Assembly (NCBI GenBank): GCA_003427395.1
Contig: BFEA01000023.1
Span: forward strand, 1,878,539 to 1,942,538
Source of the DNA: Chara braunii
Taxonomy: Eukaryota > Plantae > Charophyceae
Reading direction: 5' to 3'
Length of the DNA stretch: 64,000 nucleotides
Below, one piece after another: positions 24,275 to 48,459 of the stretch (positions are counted from its first letter, which is position 1; each line of letters starts with the position of its first letter). Under the pieces are notes generated by a model that did not search any database, was not told the origin of the DNA, and was given only the letters and a program-made list of their open reading frames with translations. The position numbers were made by a program, and so were the translations under genes.

Positions 24275-24376
24275 TGCATGGGTCCGGAGGAGATAAAATA
24301 GGAAAAACACAGAGCCTTGATGATGCCAGATTGCTCAGAAGTGAGTCATAGAGTTGGGGCTGCAGGCCCACACACC
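24275..24376. repeat. Split direct repeat B2
   Basis: 102-bp near-identical copy of 24798-24899. Confidence 0.9.
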
Positions 24377-24408
24377 GCGGGAAAATCGAGGGTGGGCGGG
24401 TCCGCTTC

Positions 24409-24791
24409 GCCAAAATCTGGCGACGAAAACGTCTCGGCCTCTGAGCAGACTGGTGCCTGTGGTGTGACTGCAGGTTCGCTTATGCGATGGGCGCAGCTGC
24501 TGGCGGACGAAATCCCGAAGCCGCTCCGCGTGAGACAAACCAGCCTGCTACGACCGGTCCTGTGCCGGTCACTTATACACTCGCTGCTCCTGGTACCAGT
24601 GGTTGCCGGTCCTCCGAGGGGCTCCTTCCCGCAGGGTGAGTTCCGCTGAAACCTCCTTCGCCGATCTTGGTTCCACCAGCTCGCAACCGTAGATCTTGAA
24701 AATTAAAGAAATCAAATCATTTAGAAAAGTAGGCTCGACTTCGAATCGGAACCCACCGAGTAGGTACCAACTGCATGGGCTGGAGTACGAC
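24409..24791. repeat. Split direct repeat A2
   Basis: near-identical to 37806-38283 apart from a 95-bp internal indel. Confidence 0.9.
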
Positions 24792-24797
24792 AACAGC

Positions 24798-24899
24798 TGC
24801 ATGGGTCCAGACGAGATAAAACAGGAAAAACACAGAGCCTTGATGATGCCAGATTGCTCAGAAGTGAGTCATAGAGTCGGGGCCGCAGGCCCACACACC
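24798..24899. repeat. Split direct repeat B1
   Basis: copy of 24275-24376. Confidence 0.9.
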
Positions 24900-25825
24900 T
24901 CCTAGACCTCCCAAAATCCCTCCATCATCCCACAAATGACGTGTCATCTTGCAGGGAGTGGTGGAACGAGCGAATGAGTGATGGAAGCTGGAGGCAAAAG
25001 CGAGCGACGTCGGAAATAGCTGGAAGTTATCAAACGGGGCTAGAATGGAGTAGCAAGCTAATAGAGGAGTTAGACCAAGAAAGCGATGGCGAAATGGAAT
25101 GAAGAAATTACTGTTTGGATTGAATGAGTGGTTAAAATGAAATGGAGTGCGCAGGAGTTGTATGACATGCAATGATTTGGATGTTCTTTCCTTCCTAAGT
25201 AGCCAATGGTTAGTGGAAATTGAGAGCAGGTGCCGAACTACCGATAGCGATTGCGAACCAATAGTGTCACCATCCACTGTAGATGTGGTGGTGAATTGCT
25301 TAAGTGGTGCCTTTAGATTGCTTGGTAGGGAGGAAGGGGATGATCCTTGCCAGGGTAGTCGGGTAAAGGCGTTTCGGAAAGCGTACAGAGAGTATGGGTT
25401 GGCGAGAGGGGTTACGGAGGAGTCAGCGCGACCGGTGGTTTGGGAAAAACTGAAGGTTGTGATCGAATATACATGATGCAAGATAAAGGTGCTAATAAGG
25501 ATGAGAGAGGCGGAGACTTATCGAGATGCCGCTATGTTCTTATATTTGTGGGAGAGCTGGTAGCGATGCGGGGAAGGTTTGCGGTTGCAATATAAAGAGA
25601 TTGATATTGGGAATTGCCTTGTACGACCAGGATATACTAAGACAGATCTCTATGGAGGTCGATTTCTCATAAGGTTAAAGAAGGCTGAGGAAGGCGAAGA
25701 GACTTTTTTGCGCATTCTGCCAGAGCTGATAATTGTGTATGAGAGCCTGGGGGTGGATTTGCGATTTGGTTATTTGTTTCGGGTTGATCGTGGGGTTAAC
25801 GCACTTGTGAGCGATGAGGGTTTGA
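24843..25825 (+). pseudogene. Tyrosine recombinase, predicted spliced (exon 24843-24863 plus 24955 onward); in-frame stops; C-terminal H-x-x-R/Y region missing
   Basis: core-binding-like PSTVDVVVNCLSGAFRLLG...DPC...ARPV; YRDAAMFLYLWESW*RCGEGLRLQYKEID (catalytic R region); TKTD; GYLFR. Confidence 0.8.
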
Positions 25826-25829
25826 ATTT

Positions 25830-27355
25830 TTTATGTCTTATCTTCTGGAACCCTGATTCTTTTTTAGTGAGAATCAATCGTAAAACCCAGGAATCTAATG
25901 GATTGTGAAGGAAGAAAGGAATATTTGTTAAGACTTAAAAAAAAAATGAGGTTGTGGAGGAGGGAGACATAGTTGAAAGATTGTCAAAGAAGAAGGGGAA
26001 GGTTTGGTTTGCTAGAGCAGAGTCATCGATATATGAGGTAATAAAAATATGGCGGAGGCGGAGTTATGCCATAATTTCTTGCATTACTGTAGTAAAGATC
26101 CAACATGCGGCGGATATGCCAAAACATAGAGTTCTGAATTGGTAAGTGGTCCCTTCTCAGGAGAAGGCAAGGTAAGGTTTGTGGTCAAGGTGAACCTGAA
26201 TATGGTAGTATCCATTTTTAATATCAAAACAGGTCAGAAAGTCTTGTGTCGGAGAACCAAAAAGTGGGGCTACCAGGTCATTGATGGATTCATAGTGGAA
26301 TTATGGAAAGGATAGGAAGAGGTTAACAAATCTAACATCTAGGATGAATCTGGTTTTGAAAAAGTTTTTGATAGCGAAGACTGGATTGATAACCAGAGGG
26401 TTAGGGGAAGGTTCGATGACACCATATGAGAGTAGTTGAGAAATTGAAGAGGTGATGAAGCTATTATGGTGAGGGAGAAGGGAGTGGTTGGGGATTGAGG
26501 TAGGTGGGGGGTTTTCACACAAGAGGACTCTTTTGAAAGCAGAGGCTGAATAAACATTTTTTACCATATGCCTGACTTCGATAATCTTTTTAACAGGGAT
26601 ATGCTTAGTACCAACAAAATTGAGTTTGACTCCATGCTGGCTCCATTGGAGAACAGAGTGAGAATACCTTCTTGAGGAGGAAGAAAGGAGAAGTGACCAG
26701 TTACTGAAGTACTAGTGCGAAGGAGAAGCGACAAAAAAGTGGTTTGGGTTGCGGAGCCAAAAGGTAGGTTCTTGAAGGGCGAAAGAGGCAAGGCGGAGTT
26801 GCGAGACTGTATGAGTGGAAGAGAGGCTGTCTCTTATACACATCTAGATGTGTATAAGAGACAGGGGATATGCTTAGTACCAACAAAATTGAGTTTGACT
26901 CCATGCTGGCTCCATTGGAGAACAGAGTGAGAATACCTTCTTGAGGAGGAAGAAAGGAGAAGTGACCAGTTACTGAAGTACTAGTGCGAAGGAGAAGCGA
27001 CAAAAAAGTGGTTTGGGTTGCGGAGCCAAAAGGTAGGTTCTTGAAGGGCGAAAGAGGCAAGGCGGAGTTGCGAGACTGTATGAGTGGAAGAGAGGTTTGA
27101 GAGGATTGATGGAATAGATGGGAGATGGAAAGGCGACTCATTAGTCCGAATGTCTGACGGGATCTGCTGGAGAGGAAGAGTGGTTACTCTTGGATTCTGA
27201 GTCATGGTGAGGACGCTTAGAGGAACGGTTGAAGTCGTTGCCCCTGTCTGACTTGTCTTCATAATGACACTTTGAAGAGGATTTCTTGAAGTCATCTGAC
27301 TTGTTATTGTCGTCCTTCTTTCGGATGGAAAATGGGTCTGCTTCCGACTTGCCAT
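25830..27355 (-). pseudogene. DIRS-type pol (reverse transcriptase); stops present, RNase H not found
   Basis: SVLQWSQHGVKLNF; LLSYGVIEP; RFILDVRFVN; FDIKNGYYHI; QFRTLCFG; SYIDD (26022-26033); PSQSIRFLGFTIDS. Confidence 0.9.
26827..26864. other. Nextera mate-pair junction adapter (assembly artefact) between two copies of a 231-bp segment
   Basis: exact CTGTCTCTTATACACATCT-AGATGTGTATAAGAGACAG; flanks 26596-26826 and 26865-27095 match. Confidence 0.97.
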
Positions 27356-28893
27356 ACCTGCAATAATAAAAAAATAGAGAGAGATGGATAAGTCCATGAA
27401 CGCGAACGACGTGGACCTACTTAGCGGTCCAGGGCGATAAACCTTTTGATATCGGGCGACTGCCCTTGTGCTTACCTAGAGTAGTCCCTCCTTGCGATGT
27501 TTAAGCAATAATTGTATTATGACTCGATAATGGGAAGTGTTTTCTCCATGCCCTCGCGGATGACCTTGTTAAGGGCTGACGTTGTCTCCGTGAAAATCCT
27601 ATGATCGATGCAGTTCTTAGCCACTGATGCTACTCGAGTTGCAAAGTCACTGACCATAGCCCTGCCAAATGGATAATGGTGGTAGTTGAGGTTGATGGTG
27701 TAGAAACAAATGACTGTAGCGACTTGGTGGTGCCAAGCAGGGGCGCAAAACATCTTGTACCAAACTTGGAATTCATCGTATGAAGGGCCAGACTTGTCGG
27801 CGATACGGATTTTGATGGCTTCCATGTCAGAGAGTAGGTTTCGATAGAGTTCATTGGTGGCTTGAGTCTCCTCTTCTTTCTTAGCAAGTTCCTTCATTAA
27901 GGCCTCCGCAACTGACTTGGTCTCGCTTTCTTGCTTAAATAGTTAAATCTTGAGTTTCTCGAAAAGTTCCAAGGAGACCGTTTGGGCAGGGGGGTGAGAT
28001 GTAAGGTGGGGGCTGGAGTGGTGTGCTGAGACTGCAGAGAGTTGAGGGAAATCGGAGGGGAAGAGGTCAACAAAAATTTTTTCCAGAATTAAATAATCAT
28101 TCTATAGTAAAATTACATTCTAAATTTCAAATTTTCATTCCATCTTAAAAAATATCATTACAATTTTAAAATTTTCCGTCTTACTTGAAAACTTTCCTTC
28201 CAATAATGGGGTATCCCTTCTTATTTGAACTGGATGCTAGAGATGAAATGAAAGTCTGGATGAGTTCATGAAATATATTTTAATTAGACTGATATTCTAA
28301 GTAAGGATTTTTAATTATAAATAGGTTAATCCAATCTAAATTAGAAGATATTTGTTGTAGTAGAATGAAAGTTTAATTAAAACATTTCATAAATTCATCC
28401 AAACTTTCATTCCATCTTGAACAAATAGATGTAGTTGGAAGGGAAAACTCATATTGAGACGGAAATTTATCAAATAAAGCTGAAAATTTTAGAATTTGAC
28501 AAACATTAGAATGATAATTTATAAATATGAAGGATTTTGTTTTTATGAAATATTTTTTCAACTTTCATTTCTCGTGAGAATTTTTCTGTTGGTGATAGGA
28601 AGATGGGGGGGGGGTGTTCTGGGGAATGGTGGAAGTAGAAGAGAGAGAGAAGTACGGGGGGAGATTGATTTGATTTTAATTGCTAGAGTGTTGACCTTAT
28701 ACTGAGTTTGAAATTTGATTGGAATGATTAAGAATAGTAGCTTTCGGGGGTCAGGAATGGCAGGGTTGAGGCATTCAATGATCTTAACAGGGGTGTAGAT
28801 AGGTGGAAAGATGGGTAGGACAACAAGAACCTCAGCCCCGGTGAGGGAGAGAGGACCAGAGACATTGAGGTATGCTAAGAGCATGAAGTCCAT
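27141..28893 (-). pseudogene. gag-like ORF upstream of and overlapping pol; split by a MITE, a frameshift and a predicted 118-nt intron (27358-27475)
   Basis: ATG directly after TTTTCAG; Pro-rich linker then helical MKELAKKEEE...; AG|GTAAGC spliced to TTGCAG| gives a 72-codon open charged tail. Confidence 0.55.
28068..28591. mobile_element. Non-autonomous TIR element, family 3 (CAAC...GTTG, 2-bp TSD)
   Basis: ends CAACAAAAATT / AATTTTTCTGTTG; TSD GT. Confidence 0.85.
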
Positions 28894-29082
28894 CTGAAAA
28901 CACAAACAAGAACATAAGTTAGGAGAGGGGATTAATTAATGGTGTTTTAATAGGGCTAAAAAAATTGACTTGGTAAGACATGATTCTAGAGGAATTCTCT
29001 CCCTCTCCCTTCTTTCTCGATTTTTTTTTTTTTTTTTTTTTTTTAAGACATAATTTTTTTTTTTTCTCTTTTTTTTTTTTTT

Positions 29083-29129
<47 letters not shown>

Positions 29130-29539
29130 GGTTCCGCCCATAAAGGAAGTTGAATATAGATAAAATAGTTTCCTTGAGGAATATGAGTAAGTTCATCATA
29201 ATGCAGAAGTATTGCTAAGAAAACGGGGTAGATTGATGAGATTACAAACGCGAGGTATTTAATTTTTTATTTTTATTTTTATTTTTAAGGTTAGGATCTC
29301 ATTTTTCATTCAGACTGATCACCAACTTTTACCATTTTCGGACTTAAACCTAGTAATAGGCGTGAAGGTTATAAGTGAGAAGAGGGAAAAAAAAAAAAAT
29401 GACGCAGGCTACAGGTAGGGTAATGGAGGGAAGTAGAAAGGATTTAAGAAAAGTGTCATAGAGGAACGGAATAGTCAAGGTAAGGGTCATGATAAGTTTG
29501 AAGCACAATAGTTCCTAGTGACTGAATGCCCGTCATTTA

Positions 29540-29571
<32 letters not shown>

Positions 29572-29599
29572 CATATATATATATACATATATATATATA

Positions 29600-30353
29600 C
29601 AGGGTCACCAGCCCGTACGTACGGAGGTCCACGGGCAGACCTCCGTACGTACGGGCGTTTGGGGTCCCGTACGGGGTCCGAACCCGACGGCGTTCGGCCC
29701 CCGCCAAAAATTATTTCGAGGTTTAAACATTATTAGTTTTTTCTAATTTTTGTTTTTTGACTTTTCTATGATGTGAGGTACATGCCTATAAATTTTCAAG
29801 GCATTTGGATAAGCCAAATAAGAATTAAAAATCGCCATAGATGGCGGTGTAAAAACGTGCTCGCCCACGTATTTTTTCACTTTTTACTTTTTGTTTTCAC
29901 TTTAGTTCGGGGTCTAAACAATTTTATTATTTTTTGAATCTTTTTTAGTGGGTTTTGTATTATGTGAAGTACACATCTGTAAATTTTCAGGGCATTTAAC
30001 TATGCCAAAAAAAAATAAAAAATCGTCAAAGATGGCGGTGTCAAAAACATGCTTGTGCACACACTAAATTTAATTCTCTTTTTATTTTTATTTATTTTAT
30101 TATTAGTATTTGTTTTTCGTATTTTATTTTTATTTCAAATTTCGTAAGGAATTCGGATGTAATGCTCAGGCAAATCTTGTTCAATTTAGTTTTATTCATA
30201 ATACATTTTTTTTTCAGATGTTTTTGATGACTTTTTTTTTTTTTTTTTTGGGTCCGCGTTCGACCCGAACGGCCGAACGCATCCCCAAGGGGTCCCATAC
30301 GTTCGGGCGTTCGGGTTCGGGCGTTCGTCCCGTCCCGAACGCCGGTTACCCTG
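29600..30353. mobile_element. hAT-like MITE, family 2, inside (TA)n
   Basis: CAGGGTCACCAG...CCGGTTACCCTG; flanked by TATATATA on both sides. Confidence 0.85.
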
Positions 30354-30415
30354 TATATATATCTATATCTATCTTTCTATATATATATATATATCATCGT
30401 ATATATATATCTATA

Positions 30416-31881
30416 CAGGGTTACCAGCCCGTACGTACGGAGGCCCCCGGGCGGACCTCCGTACATTTCGGCGTTCGGGGTCCCGTAGGGGGTCCGAACC
30501 CGACGGCGTTCGGCCCCCGCCATAAATTATTTAGGGGCCTAAAAATAATTTTTTGTTTCTGATTTTTTTTTTTATAAGTTCTCTATCACATGACGTACAT
30601 GCCTATAAATTTTTAAACCATTCAGCTTAGCCAAATAAGAATTAAAAATCGCCAAAGATGGCGGTGTCAAAACGTGCTCGCCCACACTTTTTTTCACTTT
30701 TTACTTTTTGTTTTCACTTTAGTTCGGGTTNNNNNNNNNNNNNNNNNNNNNNNNNNNNNNNNNNNNNNNNNNNNNNNNNNNNNNNNNNNNNNNNNNNNNN
30801 NNNNNNNNNNNNNNNNNNNNNNNNNNNNNNNNNNNNNNNNNNNNNNNNNNNNNNNNNNNNNNNNNNNNNNNNNNNNNNNNNNNNNNNNNNNNNNNNNNNN
30901 NNNNNNNNNNNNNNNNNNNNNNNNNNNNNNNNNNNNNNNNNNNNNNNNNNNNNNNNNNNNNNNNNNNNNNNNNNNNNNNNNNNNNNNNNNNNNNNNNNNN
31001 NNNNNNNNNNNNNNNNNNNNNNNNNNNNNNNNNNNNNNNNNNNNNNNNNNNNNNNNNNNNNNNNNNNNNNNNNNNNNNNNNNNNNNNNNNNNNNNNNNNN
31101 NNNNNNNNNNNNNNNNNNNNNNNNNNNNNNNNNNNNNNNNNNNNNNNNNNNNNNNNNNNNNNNNNNNNNNNNNNNNNNNNNNNNNNNNNNNNNNNNNNNN
31201 NNNNNNNNNNNNNNNNNNNNNNNNNNNNNNNNNNNNNNNNNNNGCTTTCAAACAATTCCGAAAAAAAACTATGTTATGGAGAAAAATAAACTAAACAACA
31301 TTTGCGTGGGCACTACATCCAAATTCTTTACCAAATTTGAATTAAAAATAAAATATATAAAATAAACATTATGATAAAAATAAGAAAAAATAAAAAGAGA
31401 ATTAAAATGAGTGAGTGTGCCAACACCTTTTCGACACCGCCATCTTTGCCGATTTTTAATTATTTTTTGGCATAAATGCCCTGAAAATTTAGAGATATGT
31501 AGTTTACATAATCAATAACTCATTTAATTTTTCTCAAAAAATAATAATTTTTTTTGGCCCCGAAATGAAGTGAAAACAATAAGTTAAAAATGAAAAAAAA
31601 ACAAAATAGTAAATGGGCGAGCACGTTTTGACACCCCCATCTTTAACGATTTTTAATCTTGTTTTGGCTAAGCAGAATGACTTCAAAATTTATAGACTTG
31701 TAGGTTACGTCACAGAGAACTCAAAAAAAAAAATTAAAAAAAAAACACTTATTTTTAGGCCCCGAAATAGTTTTTGGCGGGGGCTGGACCTGGAGTCGTT
31801 CGGCCCCCGAACGGGACTCCGAACGCCTGAACGTTCGGCGGCCAGCCCGGGGGCCCCCGAACGTTCGGTAAGCTAACCCTG
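30416..31881. mobile_element. Family 2 MITE copies on both sides of an N gap (30416-30730 forward; 31244-31881 inverted)
   Basis: CAGGGTTACCAG start; ...GCTAACCCTG end; shared internal GATGGCGGTGTC motifs. Confidence 0.75.
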
Positions 31882-31885
31882 TATA

Positions 31886-32648
31886 CAGAGTCACCAGCCC
31901 GTACGTACGGAGGTCCCCGGGCAAACCTCCGTACGTACGGACGTCCGGAGTCCCGTACGGGGTCCGAACCCGACGGCGTTCGGCCCCCGCCAAAAATTAT
32001 GTCGGGACCTAAAAATAATTATTTTTTTCTGAATTGTTTTTCGTGAGTTCTCTATGATGTGACGTACATGCCTGTAAATTTTCAAGTTATTTGGCTTAGC
32101 CAAATTAGAATTAAAAATCGCCAAAGATGGCGGTGTCAAAACGTGTTTGCCCACGTATTTTTTCACTTTTTACTTTTTGTTTTCACTTTAGTTCGGGGTC
32201 TAAACAATTTTATTATTTTTTGAAACTTTTTTAGTGGGTTTTGTATTATGTGATGTACGTATCTGTAAATTTTCAGGGCATTTAGCTAAGCCAAAAAAAA
32301 TGAAAAATCGCCAAGGATGGCGGTGTCGAAAACATGCTCTCGCACTCACTAAATTTAATTCTCTTTTTATTTTTATTTATTTTTATTATTAATATTTGTT
32401 TTTCGTATTTTATTTTTATTTCAAATTTGGTAAGGAATTCGGATGTAATGCTCAGGCACATCTTGTTTAATTTATTTTTCTCCATAACATATCTTTTTTT
32501 CAGATTTGTTTGATGAACTTTGTTTTTTTTTTTTTTTTTTTTTTGGCTCCGCGTTCGGCTCGAACGGCCGAACGCATCCCCAAGGGGTCCCATACGTTCG
32601 GGCGTTCGGGTTCGGGCGTTTGGCCCGTCCCAAACGCCGGTTACCCTG
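31886..32648. mobile_element. hAT-like MITE, family 2
   Basis: CAGAGTCACCAG...CCGGTTACCCTG; collinear with 29600-30353. Confidence 0.85.
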
Positions 32649-33059
32649 CCTGTATATATATATATATATATATATATTCAGCGAAAGAGTAAAGGAAAAC
32701 ATAATAAAAAAAAACATAATGAAAATGAAGAGTAATTATTCAAAATTCTTAGGAAACACTGATAAACTTCATCCTTTGAATTTAGTACCGCTTCCCCCTT
32801 CTACTATTTTCTCTATAATTTTTTATTTCTTTTTTCGATTCAAACATCCTGGTGCAAGGGCTAAGCCATATTCTTAGGGGAGTTGAGGCATAGGAGATGC
32901 ACACTATGAAGGTTAACCTTATTCGACAGAAGAAATTATTATTTAAAAAAGTTGATTAACCCTTCTCTTTTTTTTTTCTTTTTTTTTTTTTAGCTTATCC
33001 CAGACGAAGATTGTAAAGATGTAAGGATGGGAAAAATGGGTGACTGGTTGGGGGGTGCT

Positions 33060-33278
33060 CTACCAAACCATGTCTCGAACTTTAGAAAAGAGGAGGGTGA
33101 TGAAGAGGAGTGGTGGGGTTAGAAAAAAGATAACGAAGGTAAAACAAAAGAGTTGAAGGAGTTTAAAGGGAAAACATATTATAAGAAAATGGTTTCTTGA
33201 TAAGGAGATCGTCTTGAAAAGGACTATAAAGGGGGTGAGAGCAAAGATATTCGTAACTTTGTCAAGAATAGGGTCCAT
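33060..33278 (-). CDS. Accessory 72-aa hydrophobic ORF of the DIRS-like element (possible membrane peptide)
   Basis: CCTAAC branch, TTTGTTTTGCAG acceptor, ATG 5 nt later; long Phe/Leu/Ile stretch. Confidence 0.45.
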   Translation of the reverse strand: MDPILDKVTNIFALTPFIVLFKTISLSRNHFLIICFPFKLLQLFCFTFVIFFLTPPLLFITLLFSKVRDMVW

Positions 33279-33437
33279 GATGCCTGCAAAACAAAGCTGG
33301 GAGTTAGGGAGATGCGGAATTAGCTTTTGTTTATACTAAATAAACACATGATGCATCAACCTTTTTTTTTTTTTTTAATGAGAGATATAGATCTCCTTAC
33401 TTTTATTATTATTTATTATTATTATTATTATTATTTT

Positions 33438-34665
33438 TTAACACTTGCATGAATAACATGATGAAGTAGCATCAACAAGGAAGATTCTTCCGATAAACCC
33501 GTAGCTCAGAGCACAATTAAACAAATAACACCATTGAATTGATCCTGTTATGGTGGATTGGAGGTTTGCTTGCCCGTTGCGTGCCGGCTGGTTTAGCAGA
33601 CTAGAGGTAATGATTGCTGACAAGGTACCAAGGTCGTGACATCGATCAGAAAGGTTTTTTTTTTTTTTTTTTTTTTTTGGGTCCGCGTTCGCCCCGAACG
33701 GCCGAACGCATCCCCAAGGGGTCCCATACGTTCGGGCGTTCGGGTTCGGGCGTTCGTCCCGTCCCGAACGCCGGTTACCCTGTATATNNNNNNNNNNNNN
33801 NNNNNNNNNNNNNNNNNNNNNNNNNNNNNNNNNNNNNNNNNNNNNNNNNNNNNNNNNNNNNNNNNNNNNNNNNNNNNNNNNNNNNNNNNNNNNNNNNNNN
33901 NNNNNNNNNNNNNNNNNNNNNNNNNNNNNNNNNNNNNNNNNNNNNNNNNNNNNNNNNNNNNNNNNNNNNNNNNNNNNNNNNNNNNNNNNNNNNNNNNNNN
34001 NNNNNNNNNNNNNNNNNNNNNNNNNNNNNNNNNNNNNNNNNNNNNNNNNNNNNNNNNNNNNNNNNNNNNNNNNNNNNNNNNNNNNNNNNNNNNNNNNNNN
34101 NNNNNNNNNNNNNNNNNNNNNNNNNNNNNNNNNNNNNNNNNNNNNNNNNNNNNNNNNNNNNNNNNNNNNNNNNNNNNNNNNNNNNNNNNNNNNNNNNNNN
34201 NNNNNNNNNNNNNNNNNNNNNNNNNNNNNNNNNNNNNNNNNNNNNNNNNNNNNNNNNNNNNNNNNNNNNNNNNNNNNNNNNNNNNNNNNNNNNNNNNNNN
34301 NNNNNNNNNNNNNNNNNNNNNNNNNNNNNNNNNNNNNNNNNNNNNNNNNNNNNNNNNNNNNNNNNNNNNNNNNNNNNNNNNNNNNNNNNNNNNNNNNNNN
34401 NNNNNNNNNNNNNNNNNNNNNNNNNNNNNNNNNNNNNNNNNNNNNNNNNNNNNNNNNNNNNNNNNNNNNNNNNNNNNNNNNNNNNNNNNNNNNNNNNNNN
34501 NNNNNNNNNNNNNNNNNNNNNNNNNNNNNNNNNNNNNNNNNNNNNNNNNNNNNNNNNNNNNNNNNNNNNNNNNNNNNNNNNNNNNNNNNNNNNNNNNNNN
34601 NNNNNNNNNNNNNNNNNNNNNNNNNNNNNNNNNNNNNNNNNNNNNNNNNNNNNNNNAAAACAACG

Positions 34666-34697
<32 letters not shown>

Positions 34698-34939
34698 GAA
34701 AGGTCGCATAGATCTAATGAATATTGAAGGAATGTCGTTGACAGGAGCAGCTGGCATAATGCTATGCATGACTAAACCAAAAAAGAAGAGGGAAGAAGGA
34801 AAAAGAGGAATTGGGACCGAGTTCGTTCCATGAGCGTGAAGGAAAACTGTTGTAGTTCCTCAATCAGCGACATCATTAATGAATTTTGATCGAAAAATTT
34901 TCGAGCTTTGATGCAAATTTGACATGCACCGATATTCAT
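33438..34939 (-). pseudogene. Accessory Cys-rich/hydrophobic ORF (~150 codons) split by an insertion
   Basis: removing 33656-34704 (8-bp duplication AGAAAGGT) gives one frame MNIGACQIC...SCYSCKC with a single internal TAG. Confidence 0.55.
33656..34696. mobile_element. Insertion, mostly N gap, containing a family 2 right end (to 33782)
   Basis: flanked by AGAAAGGT duplication (33648-33655, 34697-34704). Confidence 0.5.
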
Positions 34940-36285
34940 AACCTAAGGAGCGCTAGCTATGAAGAATCTCAGGCCAATGGCCTATTTAGCAGTCCCATGA
35001 AATATTATGGATTGCTGCCTATAAGAAGCTAGCGCCTAATCCAGGCTCCCACGAAGGCGCTGGGGGAACGATAGCTCTTTGAGCCTCTATGAAGTCACTC
35101 GAGGCCGAAGGCCGAACGCCGAAGGCCGAAGGCAACTCACAAGAGCTAGACACGAAGTGTTGAGGTAATGCGTACTATTATAGAAACAGTGTGTGAACCA
35201 CGCTTCCTGAAATGTTCAAGTAGTAGCCAATTTGGTACATCAATACATCTTTCTATGCTGATACCCATCTTTCTGATGTTTACTAGCTTTTTATTGTTTA
35301 TATTTATATCCGTATCATTCCCTTCCCTTTTTTTTTTTTTTTTTTTTTTTTTATGGTTGAACTAAGATTCTTGCTTAGCATACTAAGCTAAGATAAAGAA
35401 GGGAGAGCGGGGTGGGAGCCTAGGTAGTGCTTCAGTCCCTACCTGTTCGAGTTTTTTTTTTTTTTTTTTTTGAGGGTTGCAAGGTTGCTTGGTCTGTGTC
35501 GTTAAATAACTATATTTGTTGCTCGACCTTGACTACTGAATACGTCAATCTCTCCTCTTTTTTTTTTTTTTTTTTATAATATGCAAAATGTTATTATCTT
35601 GCAGTTGTTGCAAAATGAAAGTTACTTTGCTTAGCCAAAGAAATGAGAAGTAACAAACACATGGATGATTCAAGGTTGGGCCAAAGAAGAGATTACTAAG
35701 GCAAAGGATTTGTGGGGAAAATTGAGGGAGTGAGGAAAACACCAACCCAGTGGACTTACGAACAAAGGAGGGACTCAGAAATGCAGGAAACCGATCAATA
35801 GTGAGCACGATTGAAAATGCTTAAATAATGCGAAAAACCCTCGAGTTGTATTCGTACACATCCTGATTAAAACTCCTTATTATTTTCATTTATACTCCCC
35901 TTTTGATTTTTTTTATTTATTTTTTTTAACAAGAGACCCGAAGGATAATTCCGCATACATAGTTGATTTAACTCTCTTTTCTTACTCATTATAACGCGAT
36001 GGGTCATTCATTAATCGATGATCAACAAAGATAAGTGAAAACAAAAAGAAACGAGGGTAACAAATCAGATTTTCAATTAACTCCGAATTAAACAGAGAAG
36101 GAGAGGAAAAATCCTCTTAGATGCTTTTAGCAACTTATTAAAATTCATCCATACAGGAAGGTAACAAGTTTAGGGAGGGAGACAGAGAGAGCGAGTAGGT
36201 CTATGGAGAAGGAGGAAGAAGGTGAAGAGATGGAGGGAGAAAAGGAGGAAGAGGAAAAGGAAAAAGAAAATGAGAAAATCCAAAT

Positions 36286-37613
36286 TTATGCAGATCTTGG
36301 GTTTGCGCCGTTGCCTTTGGGTTTTGGGGATTGAGATGAGGAGGGAGGTTTCATTACTAGTAAGAGGGGTTGGAGTGGAAGAGGGGGAGGTGATGGGGAA
36401 TCCGAGGAGGAGGCTTCCTCAATCTCCGATCTTCCAGACTTCTTCTTTCTAGTGGGCATCTGAGGTGCCTGCTTCCCCTTCCTCTTCATCACTAATTATC
36501 CTATGCCTAAAGCACACTTCTTATAACCCTTCCTCGAGGAAACAAACAACCAAGGATAGTCTGTCACAAATGGCGGCGAAGGTTCCAACAGCAGAGTCGG
36601 ATGGAATACGTAATCAGGCAGCTTGCCGCACGCCTGCTTCTTCAGGTAACGGAACCAGGGTCTTGGACCCCAATCTGCAAGCTTCTCAACATGAAGATCC
36701 GGAACAGCCTCGTCGCCAAGGGAGCAGAAAAAGTTCTTGAAGAAAGCGGCGACCGGGAAGGCGAGGAATGGCGACATTGCCACCCCAGGGAGGTTCTGCA
36801 GCAAGGTTATAGCCCTTCCCCGACCCAAGATTGCGCCGATCTTGAGCTGATCTTCGCAATGCACATGGCAAAACAGAAGAAGTTCGCTGAAATATCCCGA
36901 GCGCTCCTGATTTGGAATTCAGCCAGGTCGAGATGGACTCTCAACAACTCCCGCGAAGATAGGGAAGAGAGGGGGCGCGAATCTACAACGAGATGGTTGA
37001 AGATTGTAGGCGAGAAAAGTGAATGGGAAAGTAGTTCAGCCGCGTGCTTCCTCTTTATGATGAAGAGATTCCTTTGATTATCTTGGAACGTAAACGAGGC
37101 TGCTGAAGAAACATACTCAACGACATCCTGAACGTTAAGTAGATCTCCGTAGGTTCGTTCGGTGGTACGACTCTGAATTTTGAACAGCGATGCGGGAAGA
37201 AGCAGAGGAAGGAGGAAGAGGTGAAGAGGAAGAAGGGAAGCAGTAGGCGGATCAATAACAAAAATGTGCTCGAGCGCAGGATCTGTGGAGATGGGGGGAG
37301 AAGAAAAACATGACGACGGGGAGTCGATGAGGGAGGAAAATTCCTCGCGGAGGGAGCCAACGGAGATGGGGGAGAGAGAGTGAGGAAGAAGGTGGGCGGG
37401 ATAGTGGTGCTTCAGAAAGGGATCGTAGGACGACGGGGAGTCGATGAGGGGTCTGTCACGAGGAGGGGAATGAAAGAAGATGGTGGGGAAGGAATGGCGG
37501 GGCGATGAGGAGGACGAATTGGGGGAGGGAGGGATCGAGGAGCTTCTGTGGTTGGGAGGGGAACCAGAGACAACAGAAGTGACGGGACCCAGGGAATGGG
37601 GAACAGGGTCCAT
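36286..37613 (-). pseudogene. First ORF of the DIRS-like element (268-aa open part 36807-37613, Ser/Pro-rich N-terminus), function unknown
   Basis: long ORF just inside A1; further open segments 36496-36864 and 36286-36492 may continue it. Confidence 0.5.
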
Positions 37614-37805
37614 ACCGGCTGAAAAAGTAGAGGGGGAAAGACTTACCGGGAGTTAAATAAGCAGGGGAAGAATTGACTGACCGACTGGCAGATGAATCGG
37701 CCGTAAAGACTGGGCTAGGGGAAAAACAATGACTGCGAATAGGAAAGCGGAAAGGATAAGCGTGAAGGGGGAAAGGCTGGCGGAGTGAGACGAGGGCAGC
37801 CCCTG

Positions 37806-38283
37806 GCCAAAATCTGGCGACGGAAACGGCTCGGCCTCTGAGCAGACTGGTGCCTGTGGTGTGACTGCAGGTTCGCTTATGCGATGGGCGCAGCTGCTGG
37901 CGGACGAAATCCCGAAGTCGCTCCGCGTGAGACGAACCAGCCTGCTGCGACCGGTCCTGTGCCGGTCACTTATACACTCCCTTTTCCTGGTTCCAGTGGT
38001 GGTCGGTCCTCCGAGGGGCTCCTTCCCACAGGGGGAGTTTCGTTGAAACCTCCTTCGCCGATCTTGGTTCCACCAGCTCGCAACCGTAGATCTTGAAAAT
38101 TAAAAAAATCAAATCATTTAGGAAAGTAGGCTCGACTTCGAAACTGAAGATCTGCGGGGTAAAAACCTCCAAGAGGCAGTTGGATTGAAATAACTGGTGG
38201 GTCCTAGTGTCTTATCCAAAACCCAGTGATGGTTGAATTGGAACCCACCGAGTAGGTACCAACTGCATAGGCTGGAGTACGAC
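37806..38283. repeat. Split direct repeat A1
   Basis: GCCAAAATCTGGCGACG...GGCTGGAGTACGAC shared with A2. Confidence 0.9.
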
Positions 38284-39916
38284 GGTTGCAGGGTCGGACG
38301 ATATTCGTGCAATTAGTCTGTGCTGACGTCACCACTCTCTCCCTCGTTTTTGTCGGTGTAGGGACCTGGGACTCTTCTCCTCACCATAGGCTGTGCTATG
38401 CTGTGTACCGTCTGTGGGATACCAGCGGGGTCAGGGTAGATGACCGCCTCTCATTGGGCTCGCACTGGGCTTGTGCTTCCTCGCCATACATGGATTTTCC
38501 TTCTGCCAAGTGTTACACCGACCAAGCTCTCCGTGAGATCAGGGTTGTTGACCTTCTCTCTGCGCAAGAGATCAGGGCCGTTGACCTTCTCTCTGCTGAA
38601 GAGATGACTGCCAGCCAGAAATGACGGGAGGTGAATGAGCAGGTATAACCCTCCCCCCCCCTCCCTCCCNCTTCACCTGGGCGGATGAAATCTGAGTGTT
38701 GATTTGCCTCTAGTTACTGGACGCTTCATACTATAACCATTATTATTATCTTTTCTTTCTATAGATTGAATCATTAGGTATTTCGGTCTTGAGAAGTGTC
38801 GGGAACATGGCAGGTGTCGAACCACCTCCTGTAATCTCTTCGAAAGACAAATAACGGATCCAGGGAATTGTATCACAGTGCTATATAAACGGCATCCTTC
38901 CACCCCGTTTGGCCCCATCCACGTCGAAGTAGGGGATGACTATGTGAAAGTCACAGTCAACGCGGAGCTGTACAAAATCCAAGCAGAATGGTTGCCGGAA
39001 CATGCCGTTACCGTTCAGTTTGGAGATGAATCTTCCTCGGTGTCGATGAACCTTAAAAAACGCTTGGTTCGTATCTACGAAAATGGTTGGGCTACCGCTG
39101 CACAAAATGGTATTGGCCCAATAAAAAAGGGGCATATTTCACAATGAGGGGCGAAACCTAATAACTTACGTAACCCCTTCGAAAGAAATTGCAGATTGGA
39201 TGAGGAAAGTGGCGGAGACCAATATCGAACTAGATGAAGTTACACATAAGATTGCTTTCAGACCACGGATGACAGAGTGCGAACTTTGGGAGTGGAGAGA
39301 GGTAGCCTGCCACCGGTTCTTTTGGATTCGGTGTCAGCAGGTGCCGATAGAGGTTCTCCCTCTGCTCTAAGGGGCCACTACAACGGTGGGCTAATTAAAG
39401 AATACCCTGTGTTTAAAGATAAACTGAAACCGGATCTAGCCAATGCCCGCTTAGACCTCGAGTCCGCAGCTCGACTGCACTATAAGAGGTATCTAGTAGT
39501 GGATTTGGGAATGAACGGCTACATGAAATTGGAGGTGGTCTATGCCGAGACCCCATGGTGTCCGGCGTGCAGACGACATTTTCATTCTGAAGGAGATGAG
39601 GTTTGTGCCTCTAAGGGCAAAACATCGTATGCGAAAGCCGTCCAATCGAAGGGCGAACAGGGAACTAGTTTCAAGAACAAGAAGGATGGTGAGAATGTGA
39701 AAGGAAAGGGAAAAGGACAGAAAAGGAAGGAGAAGGTAAGAGAGAAGGGTAAGGAAAGACCGGGTCCAGGGAATGGAGAAACAAATTCCTCCCCAAAGAA
39801 AGATGGGAACAAGGAGAAAGATGGGATGAAGGAGAAACAAAAACACTTGAAGGGGGAAGGAGGTCGGCAAGGCGACAAATAGGATTTAGGGAAGACCATG
39901 GGAAAAGCCCAGACGG

Positions 39917-40437
39917 TAACATAAAAATTTTCCAGAATTAAATAATCATTCTATATTAAAATTACATTCTAAATTTTAAATCTTCATTCCATCTTCAAAA
40001 ATGTCATTCCAATTTTAAAAATTTCCTTCTTACTTGAAAACTTTCCTTCCAAGAATGGGGTATCCCTTCTTATTTGAACTGCATGCTAGAGAGGAAATGA
40101 AAGTTTGGACGAGTTCATGAAATATTTTAATTGGATTGTCATTCTAAGTAAAGATTTTCAGTCATAAATAGGTTAATCCAATTGAAATTAGAAGATATTT
40201 GTTGTAGTAGAATGAAAGTTTAATTAAAACATTTCATAAACTCGTCCAGACTTTCATTCTGTCTTGAACAAATAGATGTAGTTGTAAGGAAAACCCATAT
40301 TTAGACGGGTACTTATCAAATAAAACGGAAAATTTTAGAATTGGACGAACATTGGAATGATAATTTATAAATATGAAGGATTTTTTTTTTTTACAATGTT
40401 TTTTCAACTTTCATTTATCGTGGGAATTTTTCTGTTG
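39917..40437. mobile_element. Family 3 TIR element inside LINE ORF1
   Basis: TAAC...GTTG; TSD GG confirmed by the empty site CAGACGGAAAAGG at ~52171. Confidence 0.9.
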
Positions 40438-41789
40438 GGAAAAGGAGGGAAAGGGAGGGAAGGTGAGGGACAAGGAGGGTTTTCCTATGGAAGAAGATCA
40501 GGAATAGGATAAGAAGCAAGAGGGAAGATAAAGCAACAATCTCCCAGACGGTGCAGGGAAGAAGATGAATGAAGATTTCACGCCAATCGGAAGGGAAAAA
40601 AGAAAATGAAAAACTAGACTGGATGAAACAGAGGAGGATAGAAATGAAGACTTTATCATAAAAGGCAACGAGATTGTCCTCATAAAGGTGAAGGAACGAC
40701 CCCAGATCAAGGGTACCTCGCCCCCTCCCCCTGTTCGGAATAGGAAGAAGGGACCGGAAAGAAAACCCGGTCTCCGGAAAGGATCCCACTTAGTTTCTCT
40801 TCATCGCAAATTACGGAGAACGACATGTATGCCTCCTCAGATGAAGAGACAGACCATGACTCGGATCTCAAACTTAAAATGCTATATAACCTCAAATCTA
40901 TGAGATCCCCGCGCTCCCCATCCCCGCCTCGAGCCCCGTCGGGGTCGAAAAGGGACGAATATCAGTCAGTAGACAGTCGTAGTTTGACCCAGGAACAACG
41001 GAAAAACCCGCCCTGACAAAAATACATGACACCTCTTCGGTAGGTGTATCAACCTAAAGAGACAGAAGGCTTGCAAGAAGACCTCGGCACGGTCGACATC
41101 TGAGGGGACGTCTGCTGAGATATCTCCCCGCCACACAGGGAATACTGGGGGAAAAGGCGAGAGTACATTTCAAAGGCCAGCAATCTCGAGTCCTTGGCGG
41201 ACCCATGCCGACATTGCAAAAGAAGGATAAAGGAAAAGGCAATTATAATTCCTTTGGTGGTTACCTCCTCCATGTATGACCCCATGATTTTGACCAACAT
41301 CGACAAAGATGAGGTTTTGTCATTCAAGTTGTCGAGGATTCCCATCACAGCCCCGCCGTTTGATTCACTTCGGGTCTCTGCTACAACAAAAAATATTCTC
41401 GACGATAATGATATACGCTCCATATTGCCTATCCCCAAGCAGGGCCGACATATTGCCCACGAATGCTCATGGAAGCAAGGTTCTCTTTCACATAGCATGT
41501 CTGGCTCTGCAAGCCAGTTCAAATGTAATACGTGCTCAAGACATTTATTGGCTTCCTTTGTCTTGACTCTTGGATATAAATGCGGATTCTCTGAAAGACA
41601 TTAACGTGCATGAGGGATGTTTTGCCCAAGAGGTGCCAGATTGGTTACATTTTACTGACGCAACAACAAACTTCAACGCAAGGATGACCCAGCAGAATGA
41701 GTTCCTCCCTCGTCAGAGAGGAAGAGGAGTAGTAACCAAGAAAACGGAGTGCAGCCGTATCCAAAATTCACGCGGCAGGGGGTCAGGTC

Positions 41790-44700
41790 ATGGATCTACC
41801 AAGTATAATCAGACTGGCAACCTAGAATGTGTGTGGGTTTGGGGATAATAATAAAAACTTCAAAAAGTCGAGATTCAAGTTGTGGCTGCATTCGCAGAAC
41901 GTGCAGATAGCATGTCTTCAAGAAATGAAGTTAAACAGAGATAAGTTGAATGCTATCCATCAATGGTGGGAAGACCCTCAGGTTTGGTCCCCGGCAGTAG
42001 GATCAAAAGGGACGGGTGGTCATATTGGTGGATAAAAACTTTAGACATCACATTAGTAGATTAGTATCATGACAATGAGGGTCGCTGGGGGCGTGGATTA
42101 AATTCATCATAAGTATGAGGATTGGGTCATTATGACAGTTTATGCCCCAGTTGACTACCCTACCCGTTTGGTCTTTTTAGAAGATCTCCCCTCTTACCTG
42201 CCAAACACCGAAAATGTAATTATCTGTGGTGACTGGAACACCGTGTTAAACCCAAGCTTGGACACTCTTACAGCCAAACCTTCGGCGACTGATTCGGTGA
42301 TCTTAACCTCCTTCTGTGACATTCAAAATCTAACAAATGCCATCAGGGTCTTTAACTCACAGGAACATAGGTTCACATGGTTTGGCCCTCCACCGACCCA
42401 TAACACCCTAACCCGGAGAAAACGTCTAGATTTTTTTCTGCTCCGGGGCGATCCATGGGACCGAAACATATGGTGCGGTATAAAACCTACGTCCCTTTCA
42501 TGCCATCACCTTGTTCTGCTGGATATACTCCCTAAGAACACAATTGACCGCCACCGCCCTCTGTTCAGACTGAATATAAACTTGTTGAAAGACCCCGGGG
42601 TTATTGCATGGGTCAATTTACACATGACAAACAGGTTGGCGGCCAGGAGTTGTTTACAAACTATCTCCAGCGGGCGGACACGTATATCGTTATAGTGAGA
42701 GAGAGACTCATTATTTTTTTTGAGAATGAAAGCTGCAAGAAAAAAATAGAAAGATTGTTTTTTGACAAATCGATTACCTATGCAGAGGCACAAATGGGTA
42801 AAGACCCGTTTTCCGATCTTCATTGGTCCATTATCCGAAAAAATTCATTGTCTCAGCAAGAAGCATTAGAAATTCAAAGGTAATCAGAATAAATATAACA
42901 ATTAAATTTCAGACGGATTATAGGTTATGATAGGATGACAAAGTTGATTTTCCGTTCTCTCCTTCAGAGTCAACCCAGACCCTTGATAAGGGAACTAGCG
43001 CACCATTTTGATACATCTGCATCAATAGCAGTAGATACAGAGGAAATATGTAGATACGCTTTAGAATATTATAGAGACATTGTCTCTACCTGAAGACCGT
43101 TCGAACCCCCCCCAACACGATATGTCAATAACTCATCCTTCTGGAATCTCTCGTAGAAGGTTATTTCATCCTCGACAACTTCTGATTTGGACAGACTAGT
43201 GGAAAAAGTTGAACTACTAGTAGCAGTCAAGATCATGGCTAAAGGCAAATGCCCAATCTTAGACAGACTTCCGATTGAGCTGCTTTTAGCAACATGGAGG
43301 ACTTTTGCTCCCTTCCTATGCTCATTATATAATGAGACCCTTCAAACGGGCAGGTTTCCAAAAGGGTTTACTCAAGGAATGATTTCACTAATGTATAAAA
43401 AGGGAGACAAAAGGGACATATGCAACTGGCGCCCGATCTCCGTATTGAATGTCACTTACAAATTGTTTGCAAAACTTTGGCCTTGCGTTTGGTCAAACTC
43501 CTCCCGGATTTGATAGGTTAGGAGCAAGGAACTTTTGCTAAGGGCCGATCAATATATGAGAATATTACAGCAACAATTCAAGCCCTATAAGTGATAGTAA
43601 AGGAAAAGAGAGATGTTGCAGTTCTCCTCCTTGATATGGAGAAGGCCTACGACAAAGTGGGTCGGAGTTTCGTCCATACCACACTTAAAACGATGTTTTT
43701 TGACCCAGGGTTTCAATCTTGGGTAAATGCCAACTATGAACACACTACCTCGGTAGTAATTGTCAATGGGAGATTGTCCGAGGAATTTCAACCGACAAGG
43801 TCTTTGCAACAGGGGTGCCCACTGACCCCCCTCCTTTTTGTCCTTCAGTTGGAGATACTGCTTGACAACATCAGAAAAAACATGGTTATCAAGGGCCTCA
43901 ATTTATGTCCGGGTATTGAATGAAAGAAAGGGGCTATAACAGATGATCTGGCGGTAGCTTGTGATAACATTTTAACATCTTTAAGTGAATTAAGAAAGGT
44001 TATAGATACTTATTGTATATTATTGGGAACTTCCATTAATTGGGACAAATCCAACTTTTTTTTTTTTTTTAGTGTGGATTGGGGGTTGAAGCGGGTTCCG
44101 ACAAATTCGTGAGACCGCTTTTTGGGAGTACAAGTTTCATTATCTGACTGCTCTAATGTCCAAGACTTCATTCTTGCAGATAAGGTGGTGGCTAGAATTG
44201 CGGGCTGGAAATGCAATTTCAAGCTTTCTTTGTTTGGTCCAGCCTTGGTAATCATGTCGGCGACTTTTTCTCTACTTTGGTTTCCACTCTCAGTTCATCA
44301 GTTGGGAAAAGGAGCCCACTCAAGAATTAAGACAGATGCGACTCGCTAAGGTGGTGGCCAGAATTGCGGGCCGGAAACGCAATTTCAAGCTTTCTTTGTT
44401 TGGTCGAGCCTTGGTAATCACGTCGGCGACCTTTTCTCTACTCTGCTTTCCAATCTCGGTTCATCGGTTGGGAAAAGGAACCCACTCAAGAATTAAGAGA
44501 GATGCGACTCCCTACCTATGAAAACCCTCAGCCCTCCAACAAGGTTTCAATTAGAGGGTCGCATGGGAATCAGTGGCTTTAGCACAAGGACAAGGGGGTC
44601 TGGGGTTGATAGACCTAGTCCAACAAAATATGGCCCTACTCTACAAATGGGTTATTGTGGCTGCGTTCGGACCACGCTCCAAATTGGGTCCGCCTGGTAG

Positions 44701-46367
44701 AATACATCATGGCCAAAAGTGGGATCTAGTGAGACATTCAGACGTATGGCCTTGTCCGTTTATCCCTTCATTTTCCACCAGGAGACCTAAGTCTAGGCTG
44801 CGGCGTAGTGTTTTAGGGGTCTGGCACAAACTGTTTCTTCAGGTCCTTTGACCTCCGGAGACAAGAAGGGAAGTTTTCAATCAGATATTATTTGAAAACC
44901 CACTAATTAAAACGGCAAAAGAAACCTGGCTTAAGGCAGATGGGAGCTAAGACTCCTTTGGGAAAAATGGGTAGAGAAAGGAATAGTGCATATTAAAGAT
45001 ATATGAGATGAGATAACAGACGACTGATTATCAATAGCCAAACTTAGGCGGAAACTGACATGGCTCCAGAATGTGGAGGAAAATTACCACTTAGTTCGTT
45101 TCTGCATTTCTAACTTACTAGAGTGCTCTCCTATCAGCAACGATAGAACATGGCGAGGGGGCTTGGATAGTAGACCCCAACAACAGACAAGAAGTTATGA
45201 GAATACTAGGACCAAATCTACTACAAGGAATAAGAACGCAAGTCTGGACCCAGAAGCCTGGGTCAAGGCCTCCTCTGCTACTGGTGAAATAAAAGGACAG
45301 AACCATCCCTACTTAAGTCGGCTTCCAGGAGTGCAGAGTGTGGCTCAGACCCTCTACTGAAAAGAAAAGGAGAAGGTCTCCCTTGTGTCAAACGATGCAC
45401 CCAAAGAATAAGAACGCAAGTCTAGACCCGGAAACCTGGGTCTGGGCCCCCTCTGCTGTTGGTGAAATAAGAGGACAAAACCATCCCTACTTTAGTCGGC
45501 TTCCAGGAGTGCAGAGTGTGGCTCAGACCCTCTGTTGGAAAAGAAAAGGAGGAGGTCTCTCTGGTGTCAGAAGATGCATCCTATCTGCAATTTGAAGCCC
45601 TGGTCTATGGATGGAATGGGGTGTTAAGACCTGATGTCCCCACCCCGGTTTGTAACTATAAGCCCAAGATTTAAGTCCAAGTTATGAGGACATCAGTAAA
45701 TAAGCAACCCGTAAAGACCGCTGCAGAACGGCTCTCAAAGGAGTTAGGCTTTTTCTTGGGGAACTTGGACCTTTTCGGTTTATTGCAGGGGCTGAAGGGG
45801 ATGGTCTCCCAGAAATAGGTCAGTCTGGCCTGGCTACAGTTGTTGCTGGTGACACCGTCGGCTACGTGGTTGGCATCTAAGGGAATAAATATTAGAGAAC
45901 AATGCGCCCGTTGTAATTGAGGATGGGAAATATAATCTTGGATATGGTGTTACTGTCCTTGTTCTCTTAGGATTTGAGAGTGGTGGAAGGAGAAATGGAA
46001 GCAGGCAACATATAATAGCTTTCCTTGGTCACAGGAATGGATACCATACGGAATGACATACCCAACTCATGATTTTTCTAAAGGGATGATTTACATTGTT
46101 CTGGCTTGTAGAGGGGCTATCATGGAAGCAATCTGGAAGGCTTGCAATAGAGCAGTTAAAAAAGAGGAAATGTCCCTTCAAAAGCTTACCATCTATGGTA
46201 TGACTTCGGTAAGACAGACGATCCGGACAGATTGGCATTCTGCTCGGACCCAGAAAGAAAATGACAGATATTGGTTTTTTCAAACATGGGGAAAAATGAC
46301 CAACGTGGTGACTATCTCATCAGATGGTCACTTAACTCTTGCAGAGTGGCTCTTCCAAAGAGGATAA
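41790..46367 (+). pseudogene. LINE ORF2 (APE endonuclease, RT, C-terminal Cys region), copy 1
   Basis: NVCGFG, ACLQE, VYAP, ICGDWN, RLDFFL, NWRPISVLNVTYKL, LDMEKAYD, SLQQGCPL, TDD; many stops and frameshifts. Confidence 0.92.
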
Positions 46368-46898
46368 GTAAATTGAACACAGTCCAAGGAGCAGAAGTAG
46401 GCCGCGATTAGGCCACCAGTTTCCTTTTTAGTAAGGATAACGTACCATAGCGCATGTTGTTGAGCTGTGAAAATGGTTTGCTAGAGTTTTGCATTTATAG
46501 GGTGTATGATGTATGCTGGATAAATGGAGAGTAGGAAGATAGAGGATTAATGTGGTTTTCTAGGATTTGTTTACACCGTAGTCCACAAGTACGTAGATTT
46601 TGGATTGACTCCTCTTACGTCTTTGTTAAGTAATTAGCTTAGATACTATAGGTTTCATGAGGCGCAAAAACGAAACCGAGTTAACTCCGATTTGAATTGT
46701 GAGGTCCTCGACCTCATTTCAACTGATGTTTTGAAATAAAATTGAGTTAAAAAATAAATTAAAAAAAAGAATGAATCCTGAGCTAGAACATGGTAAGATG
46801 TGTTTGTCTTTCGTGGGTTTGGTGAGTAGTGGAGCGAGGCCAATTGTTTTTTTTTTTTCTTGATAATACTCATCTATCTCATCCTCTCGCTAGCCTAT

Positions 46899-48108: not shown

Positions 48109-48459
48109 TATGTGTAGTACGGGGGAACACCAACCAACCCAGATCTCTCGCTAGCCCACGAGGTAGGTTGGCACTACAGCAGTGGTGCAATAACAAGGTT
48201 GTATTAGTCCCTCATCATGGTAATGAGGGGTGGGCAGGCATTGCCGATGGGGGAAATCAGTTGTACTAACACCGAGCAATGACTAGTCACTGCACCTCCC
48301 CCTACCCCCCCCCCCCAACCCCACATGGCCGTGTCTAATGGCCAATATTGTCACTGCATAGCAATTAACAACATCAGCCACAGTCCTCCTAATGCTGTCA
48401 TGGGGGAATAACGGGTTATCTCTAGCTGGTAGAACACCAAGCTTGCCCAGACACATACA

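Follow-up and report, generated by a model that had tools for sequence, protein, structure and literature searches.

Among retrotransposons that carry a tyrosine recombinase (YR), PAT elements are separated from Ngaro and VIPER by an MT domain that follows RNase H. In the accessible text of PMC4157794, a 'novel' PAT form of Daphnia pulex has split repeats in the order A1-B1-A2-B2, a reverse transcriptase (RT), an inverted YR and internal repeats placed immediately ahead of the 3' terminal repeat. According to the same text, kangaroo of Volvox and TOC3 of Chlamydomonas also have split direct repeats, with the YR inverted in kangaroo and in the sense direction in TOC3. We analysed a 64,000-nt stretch of the Chara braunii genome (assembly GCA_003427395.1, contig BFEA01000023.1, positions 1,878,539 to 1,942,538), referred to here as the window and numbered from its first letter. 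A 14.0-kb minus-strand part of it, 38283-24275, is with little room for doubt a decayed PAT-like tyrosine recombinase retrotransposon of DIRS order. It is laid out like the Daphnia form but also has an extra open reading frame (ORF1), a long stretch of spacer ahead of gag and, probably, an intron at the gag stop. Its YR is inverted, as in kangaroo and unlike TOC3, whereas its B1-A2 repeats lie beyond the YR and beside B2, those of kangaroo lying between MT and YR. We read the locus as a PAT-like element with one extra 5' ORF whose family may have used splicing to express Gag and Pol, and we give this reading an even chance; the lineage as such does appear to use splicing.

37806..38283, minus strand: repeat A1, the 5' end of the element (match to A2; the end at 38283 read by extension)
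24798..24899, minus strand: repeat B1 (95% identical to B2)
24409..24790, minus strand: repeat A2 (match to A1)
24275..24376, minus strand: repeat B2, the 3' end of the element (match to B1)
25120..25800, plus strand: tyrosine recombinase, N-terminal part only (phrog_1 integrase, E=6.2e-05)

A first-pass annotation of the window had proposed split direct repeats and a DIRS order, and both were borne out: the repeats run A1…B1-A2-B2 (A1/A2 94.5% identical over 343 nt, B1/B2 95%), and an RT and an inverted YR accompany them. A1 is longer than A2 by ~90 nt (about 38238-38149) and contains a TATA-like motif at 37974. The YR fragment lies on the plus strand, gag and pol on the minus strand. It matches the inverted ORF of a relative described below (L005, E=4e-09), whose YR homolog has Atlas neighbours carrying Phage_integrase at 0.97-0.98. 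In the alignment the fragment keeps the box I Arg, while H-x-x-R and the Tyr are missing. Foldseek gave no match at E<=0.001 for the YR fold and only weak Cre rows, the model of the YR alignment, with a predicted local distance difference test (pLDDT) score of 40, being of too low quality, and a structure search by sequence against the PDB found nothing. The RNase H and MT parts of pol were not found in the window copy, where pol is partly deleted.

The evidence for splicing centres on the end of gag.

27472..28894, minus strand: gag-like ORF, with acceptor 28894 directly before ATG 28893 and a branch motif (assigned by position)
27358..27475, minus strand: likely phase-2 intron of 118 nt, donor AG|GTAAGC on the gag stop and acceptor TTGCAG (motifs, frames, copies)
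27138..27357, minus strand: post-acceptor frame of 71 open codons, rich in K, D, S and N, overlapping the start of pol and in register with spliced gag
25971..27355, minus strand: pol, its ATG 2 nt past acceptor 27358 and +1 to the spliced gag frame (RVT_1, E=2.2e-10)

The gag-like ORF is split by a miniature inverted-repeat transposable element (MITE), has two internal stops (most other copies lack the one at 27519) and ends with a TAA inside donor 27475. It had no Pfam gag match, and a homolog search (lengths 107-343) returned nothing. The RT can be read through its stops at 26699-25971, beyond which (about 25970) pol breaks down; searches for the RT among longer proteins and in viral contigs found nothing. 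The first-pass annotation had derived gag, pol and a series of further genes from one leader donor joined to many acceptors. Its leader donor motif exists, and gag (28893) and pol (27355) do start within 2 nt of strong acceptors; acceptor 27358, however, has a local donor at 27475, 118 nt upstream, that was absent from that annotation, so that a single donor serving many acceptors does not describe the full layout. We consider it probable that 27475-27358 is an intron.

Other copies of this region were compared in 86, 98, 93 and 79 DNA contigs from four runs (two samples, one study). The donor GT, the acceptor AG and the pol ATG are untouched among the 40 differences listed. Of the indels listed at >=35%, two deletions of 2 nt fall inside the intron (27364 and 27368) and one indel of 3 nt in pol. 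One divergent copy aligns over 27171-27363 and 27453-27570, the 89 letters between them being replaced by 88 unlike ones; it thus keeps the flanks of the intron plus its first 23 and last 6 bases, the interior being unlike. Where the post-acceptor frame and pol overlap, nine of the 18 differences listed are at third positions of the post-acceptor frame, as against five in the pol frame; beyond the overlap, half of the ten are at third positions of pol, and all five of these are silent. The differences add no stop to either of these frames, and the third frame has several stops.

With the assembly artefact discussed below discounted, ATG 27355 is in the RT frame of the window copy. The possibility that this copy is a spliced Gag-Pol fusion thrown out of frame was rejected: other copies have no 1- or 2-nt indel at >=35% over 27357-26982. 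As pol is +1 to spliced gag and the copies hold no compensating indel, Pol needs another route.

The gag end was also compared across relatives. An RT profile search gave 86 loci (designated by L numbers), and a quick tree of 89 rows was built with one locus per near-identity cluster; its rows are unnamed and include no named PAT, TOC3 or kangaroo reference. The window RT, whose branch is long, belongs to a group of 46 rows (Shimodaira-Hasegawa-like approximate likelihood ratio test support 98) with L001-L006, L008, L010 and L017, and the group stands apart from most other loci. The best full-length relatives have an RT followed by RNase H- and MT-like regions (MT in L001, phrog_111, E=1.9e-05), and L001, L005 and L009/L010 carry an upstream ORF, gag, pol and an inverted YR. 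Their gag was assigned by position; that of L005 carries a zinc knuckle. A GTRAG donor motif sits on the gag stop in four of the seven clade loci with a visible gag end (L001, L005, L008 and L010), L002 having GTAAAC and L006 and L017 none. In the same loci, GTRAG stands on the stops of 15/165 long ORFs, giving a binomial p of ~0.002, uncorrected for kinship. All three relatives with an intact pol (L001, L005 and L010) have a phase-2 AG as the first acceptor-like site of the pol ORF; it matches the donor, which means that the splice would fuse Gag to Pol; the first Met of the pol ORF comes only 123 codons in (L001) or 92 codons in (L010).

Upstream of gag, L001, L005, L008 and L010 have one ORF, although their contigs may stop short of the 5' end, and an intron from ORF1 to gag fits by phase in L005 and L010 and not in L001. 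Short tandem repeats lie between the upstream ORF and gag at L001:776-1121, L008:4389-4661 and L010:833-1077, and in L005 and L008 a GT donor is also found on the stop of the upstream ORF. At about 480 in L017, an ATG follows a pyrimidine-rich CAG by 2 nt at the start of the gag region, as in the acceptor-ATG starts of the window.

The start of the element adds a leader and one ORF.

37614..37805, minus strand: leader, with donor GTAAGT 37646, donor-like GTCAGT 37681 and pyrimidine-rich acceptor 37619 (motif reading)
36288..37613, minus strand: ORF1, the extra ORF, no family assigned (268 aa open, then a second frame with one stop)

The first-pass annotation had placed the start of ORF1 at 37613, 33 nt past the donor CG|GTAAGT at 37646, and these coordinates are correct. 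It lacked both the acceptor 37619, 5 nt ahead of the ORF1 ATG, and the donor-like site 37681. Paired with acceptor 37619, and with a branch-like TTTAAC present, the latter could delimit a 63-nt ORF1 leader intron enclosing donor 37646; an intron from donor 37646 to acceptor 37619 was rejected because 28 nt is generally too short. We infer that the ~440 codons of ORF1 in all are one broken gene. A contig ~82% alike spans its region (36811-37735). No ORF1 relatives were found in Pfam, by homolog search (lengths 147-469), in the Atlas (ORF1 105-268) or in viral contigs, and the structure model (pLDDT 39) was too poor to use.

In the proposed scheme, unspliced RNA would give a short Gag, and removal of the 118-nt intron would give Gag with a 71-aa charged tail, since donor 27475 overlaps the gag stop. 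The full-length, intron-keeping RNA would serve as the template for copying. Because both genes have ORF1 and a long series of ATGs ahead of them, gag is out of reach of scanning beyond ORF1 and the spacer, and spliced gag and pol differ in frame (+1), the simplest answer would be subgenomic mRNAs, a reduced form of the first-pass scheme, in which leader donor 37646 would be spliced to acceptor 28894 to express gag and to acceptor 27358 to express pol. For the leader-spliced gag mRNA the balance is about level, and the corresponding pol mRNA is held a little more tentatively.

Several observations weigh against the splicing reading. RNA was taken from three poly(A) runs of another study, 6-13% of each being read, and covered the parts of the element that are its own less than 1-fold (0-0.24 in the gag and intron bins, at most 0.16 per direction in the donor bin); no spliced read was seen at that cover, which is too low for a test, and no joint started at 37647 among the 15 listed of 461 joints. 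A run search on 34700-38150 listed no RNA run, which has no bearing on expression. Leader donor 37646 and gag acceptor 28894 are known from the letters of the window copy alone. The stretch 38110-37614 is free of ATG, as are 32% of shuffles, and an ATG-free leader was therefore rejected as evidence of splicing. The two halves of gag are one base out of register after the MITE and its duplication are discounted, and homology between the window and relatives was not significant for gag (best E 0.03) or for exon 1. None of the DNA contigs (three joints listed) shows a precise loss of the 118 nt, so no copy derived from spliced RNA was found. The codon-position counts given above are small and not significant alone, 38 further difference rows lie outside the 40 listed, and the RT tree is a quick one on which the window has a long branch.

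Extended to its fullest form, the splicing reading would have spliceosomal removal of the gag stop set Gag-Pol across the clade; in the family of this element the scheme would have been rewired, one acceptor feeding both an extended Gag and a separate Pol in the manner of foamy viruses, leader-spliced mRNAs would supply gag, pol and one to three accessory proteins, and ORF1 would be an export factor resembling CERV or Rev. Taken as a whole, this combination is doubtful.

Another account keeps the gag-end intron and makes Pol a Gag-Pol fusion, reached through occasional use of the AAG at 27348 or a +1 shift, ATG 27355 being incidental. The same splice does join gag in frame to pol in L001, L005 and L010, and of the four AGs tested only 27348, a weaker AAG 10 nt downstream, links gag to the pol frame in the window copy; a weak second acceptor would also yield the low Pol-to-Gag ratio that retroelements generally need. 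An AAG close behind a strong CAG nevertheless tends to compete poorly, the post-acceptor frame is open and, where the two frames overlap, changes more often at third positions than the pol frame does, and the pol ATG has a G at +4 that the listed differences leave untouched. We regard this account as unlikely for the window element.

Splicing would not be needed at all if this were a standard PAT-like element whose ORFs overlap and are expressed through reinitiation or internal promoters; the splice motifs would then have arisen by chance in pyrimidine-rich DNA. No junction was seen (at low RNA cover), the C/T-rich strand offers many acceptor-like sites (25 listed), and the accessible text of PMC3266345 implies that ORF overlap is usual for DIRS and PAT, Ngaro and Viper usually lacking it. 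Chance motifs sit poorly, however, with the intron-like divergence among copies at 27358-27475 and with the donor-on-stop pattern in four relatives, and we consider this explanation distinctly unlikely.

The first-pass annotation had gone furthest, joining the leader donor to eight acceptor-ATG cassettes for about six accessory proteins, Gag and Pol.

35775..35863, minus strand: claimed cassette, weak acceptor, 28-aa ORF from ATG 35861; not supported as a gene
35304..35388, minus strand: claimed cassette, good pyrimidine tract, 25-aa poly-K ORF from ATG 35381 (ORF reading)
33060..33284, minus strand: best accessory candidate, branch motif, strong acceptor 33284, ATG 33278 in good context (72-aa hydrophobic ORF)
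28936..29215, minus strand: claimed cassette, weak, 87-aa ORF from ATG 29199 (36% Lys, from A-runs of 41, 14, 12 and 24 nt)

All its positions are correct (the donor, the eight AG/ATG pairs and the CCTAAC motifs before 33284 and 28894), and its 'successive ORFs' fail, the six accessory ATGs opening 28, 25, 55, 72, 5 and 87 aa. The 5-aa frame belongs to the 32904/32891 pair, and the 55-aa ORF (AG 34943, ATG 34939) lies inside a dispersed repeat. At 35381 a longer ORF may once have begun that has since decayed, interrupted within an A-run of 25 nt. The one reasonable candidate is 33278; its best 19-residue hydropathy value is 2.3, and it has no Pfam match. The ORF1, 33278 and gag starts read ATGGAC and that of pol ATGGCA, all within 5 nt of a strong acceptor, whereas the other five are weak starts without G at +4, 29199 being the exception. 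In the element's own spacer (28.9-35.6 kb), runs of 10-41 A are strongly biased to the sense strand, with 11 A-runs to one T-run.

A chance test of AG-ATG pairs was run on 5,378 element-own bases with 200 shuffles, its thresholds being chosen after the data were seen. Loose pairs (YAG with an ATG within 15 nt) numbered 25 on the sense strand, 39 on the opposite strand and 15.1±3.6 in shuffles. With a tract of >=70% pyrimidine there were six against one on the opposite strand and 2.2±1.5 in shuffles (6/200 reach six), and with a branch motif, >=65% pyrimidine and an ORF of >=50 aa there were two against none and 0.04 (0/200 shuffles). A few strong pairs thus exceed chance, and the set of eight falls short of eight cassettes. 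Summed DNA contig depth was 10-39 over 28870-29336, 33073-33539 and 35408-35874, as against 104-171 over gag and 121-143 over ORF1; other copies may lack or differ in the accessory region, though this was not counted as evidence, as depth is not copy number and repeat letters were skipped.

Every claimed site exists, the strong pairs exceed shuffles, and intact relatives of so old a copy could carry longer ORFs (35381 reads on past its A-run in another frame), yet the eight-cassette model is very improbable. Three of its frames are just 5, 25 and 28 aa long, another begins within an unrelated repeat and another is the product of A-runs; the opposite strand has more loose pairs than the sense strand; and four relatives, whose contigs may miss the 5' end, each have one pre-gag ORF. 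Its six accessory proteins from leader-spliced mRNAs are likewise scarcely credible. We infer that AT-rich spacer, together with sequence inserted later, accounts for most of 28.9-36.3 kb, leaving room for no more than one or two additional small genes, 33278 being the first choice.

About 5.2 kb inside the element is foreign, made up of MITEs, N gaps, the dispersed repeat and a 269-nt artefact in pol.

29596..33787, no strand assigned: MITE cluster, copies of ~800 bp in TA microsatellites, with an N gap (repeat comparison)
34918..35200, no strand assigned: separate dispersed repeat, ends approximate (contigs and RNA reads diverging)
28068..28591, no strand assigned: MITE of 524 bp that interrupts gag, with a duplicated 2-bp target (39918-40446 is ~90% identical, and an unoccupied site lies near 52176)
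26596..26864, no strand assigned: assembly artefact in pol, a 231-nt exact duplication plus a 38-nt adaptor-like palindrome (self-comparison)

The MITE clusters occupy 29596-32677 and 33657-33787, with a related copy at 4814-5528. An island of the element's own sequence, 32678-33656, interrupts them and carries acceptor 33284 and the 5-codon 32904 pair. Two N gaps, of 513 and 869 nt, lie within 28.9-36.5 kb. The dispersed repeat is recognised by 11-20 contigs per difference row at 34968-35180 and by 47 RNA reads that continue unlike at 34918. Library reads pile up over the artefact at 26827-26865, and its palindrome is presumably a Nextera mate-pair junction.

Beyond the element, 38555-49590 and 50816-60635 form a tandem duplication with a block of ~11-12 kb and 91-95% identity. 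Its ORF fragments appear LINE-like (long interspersed nuclear element) by eye, and the MITE at 39918-40446 is present in the first copy and not in the second. Matches of 76-81% to the A2/B2 junction region (24319-24415) occur at 48740-48834 and 59790-59875 and are possibly remnants of a related element.

The RT search also reached loci outside the clade. In another RT clade a long upstream ORF ends in TGA-CTAG with the pol ORF directly in frame (L023:2570, L037:810, L077:4339), and TGA-CTAG also occurs at L050:943 and L059:814. A TGA followed by CTAG is a context for leaky-stop readthrough. Loci L080-L086 place a DIRS-type RT on prokaryotic-bin contigs (Sansalvadorimonas, Poribacteria, Stappiaceae, Nitrosopumilaceae and others), probably through contamination by eukaryotic host contigs.

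Introns appear to occur in some fungal YR elements. In the literature searched, mostly titles and abstracts, spliced gag-pol was not reported for any DIRS or PAT element, although an earlier description may exist and element tables in supplements might note such introns; nor was there an account of how PAT-like elements make Pol. The word 'intron' is absent from PMC3266345, PMC4157794 and PMC6681497, the intron discussed in the accessible part of PMC7192593 is an engineered marker intron, and the accessible parts of PMC9940879, PMC8226300, PMC9341512, PMC12477816 and bioRxiv 10.64898/2026.05.21.726589 contain nothing on the question. The donor on the gag stop and the phase-matched acceptor at the start of pol predict one precise junction that existing RNA-seq from hosts of the clade could be screened for, which makes the question cheap to test. 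The window copy itself is dead and partly deleted, and so serves as a pointer and not as a working model.

Splicing programmes are already known in other retrotransposons, as the accessible texts on Cer1 (PMC10309623) and Copia (PMC5580714) describe. Cer1 of C. elegans makes its accessory protein CERV, needed for export of unspliced genomic RNA, from a spliced mRNA; Cer1 is a long terminal repeat (LTR) element, unlike the element in the window, and CERV offers a precedent, by analogy, for a possible role of ORF1. The route proposed here from the leader donor to the pol acceptor can be likened to that of foamy virus pol (PMC3196705), although foamy viruses are LTR/integrase retroviruses and the pol acceptor in the window has a local donor. 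Closest to the gag-end intron is shGAG of plant Ty1/Copia elements, in which splicing near the end of gag sets the Gag-to-Pol ratio. In Copia, spliced RNA gives Gag only and unspliced RNA gives Gag-Pol, while the reverse is predicted in the clade relatives of the window element. If real, a splice-made Gag-Pol fusion would join frameshifting, readthrough and Copia-type splicing, and these elements would have to export intron-keeping RNA, as retroviruses and Cer1 do.

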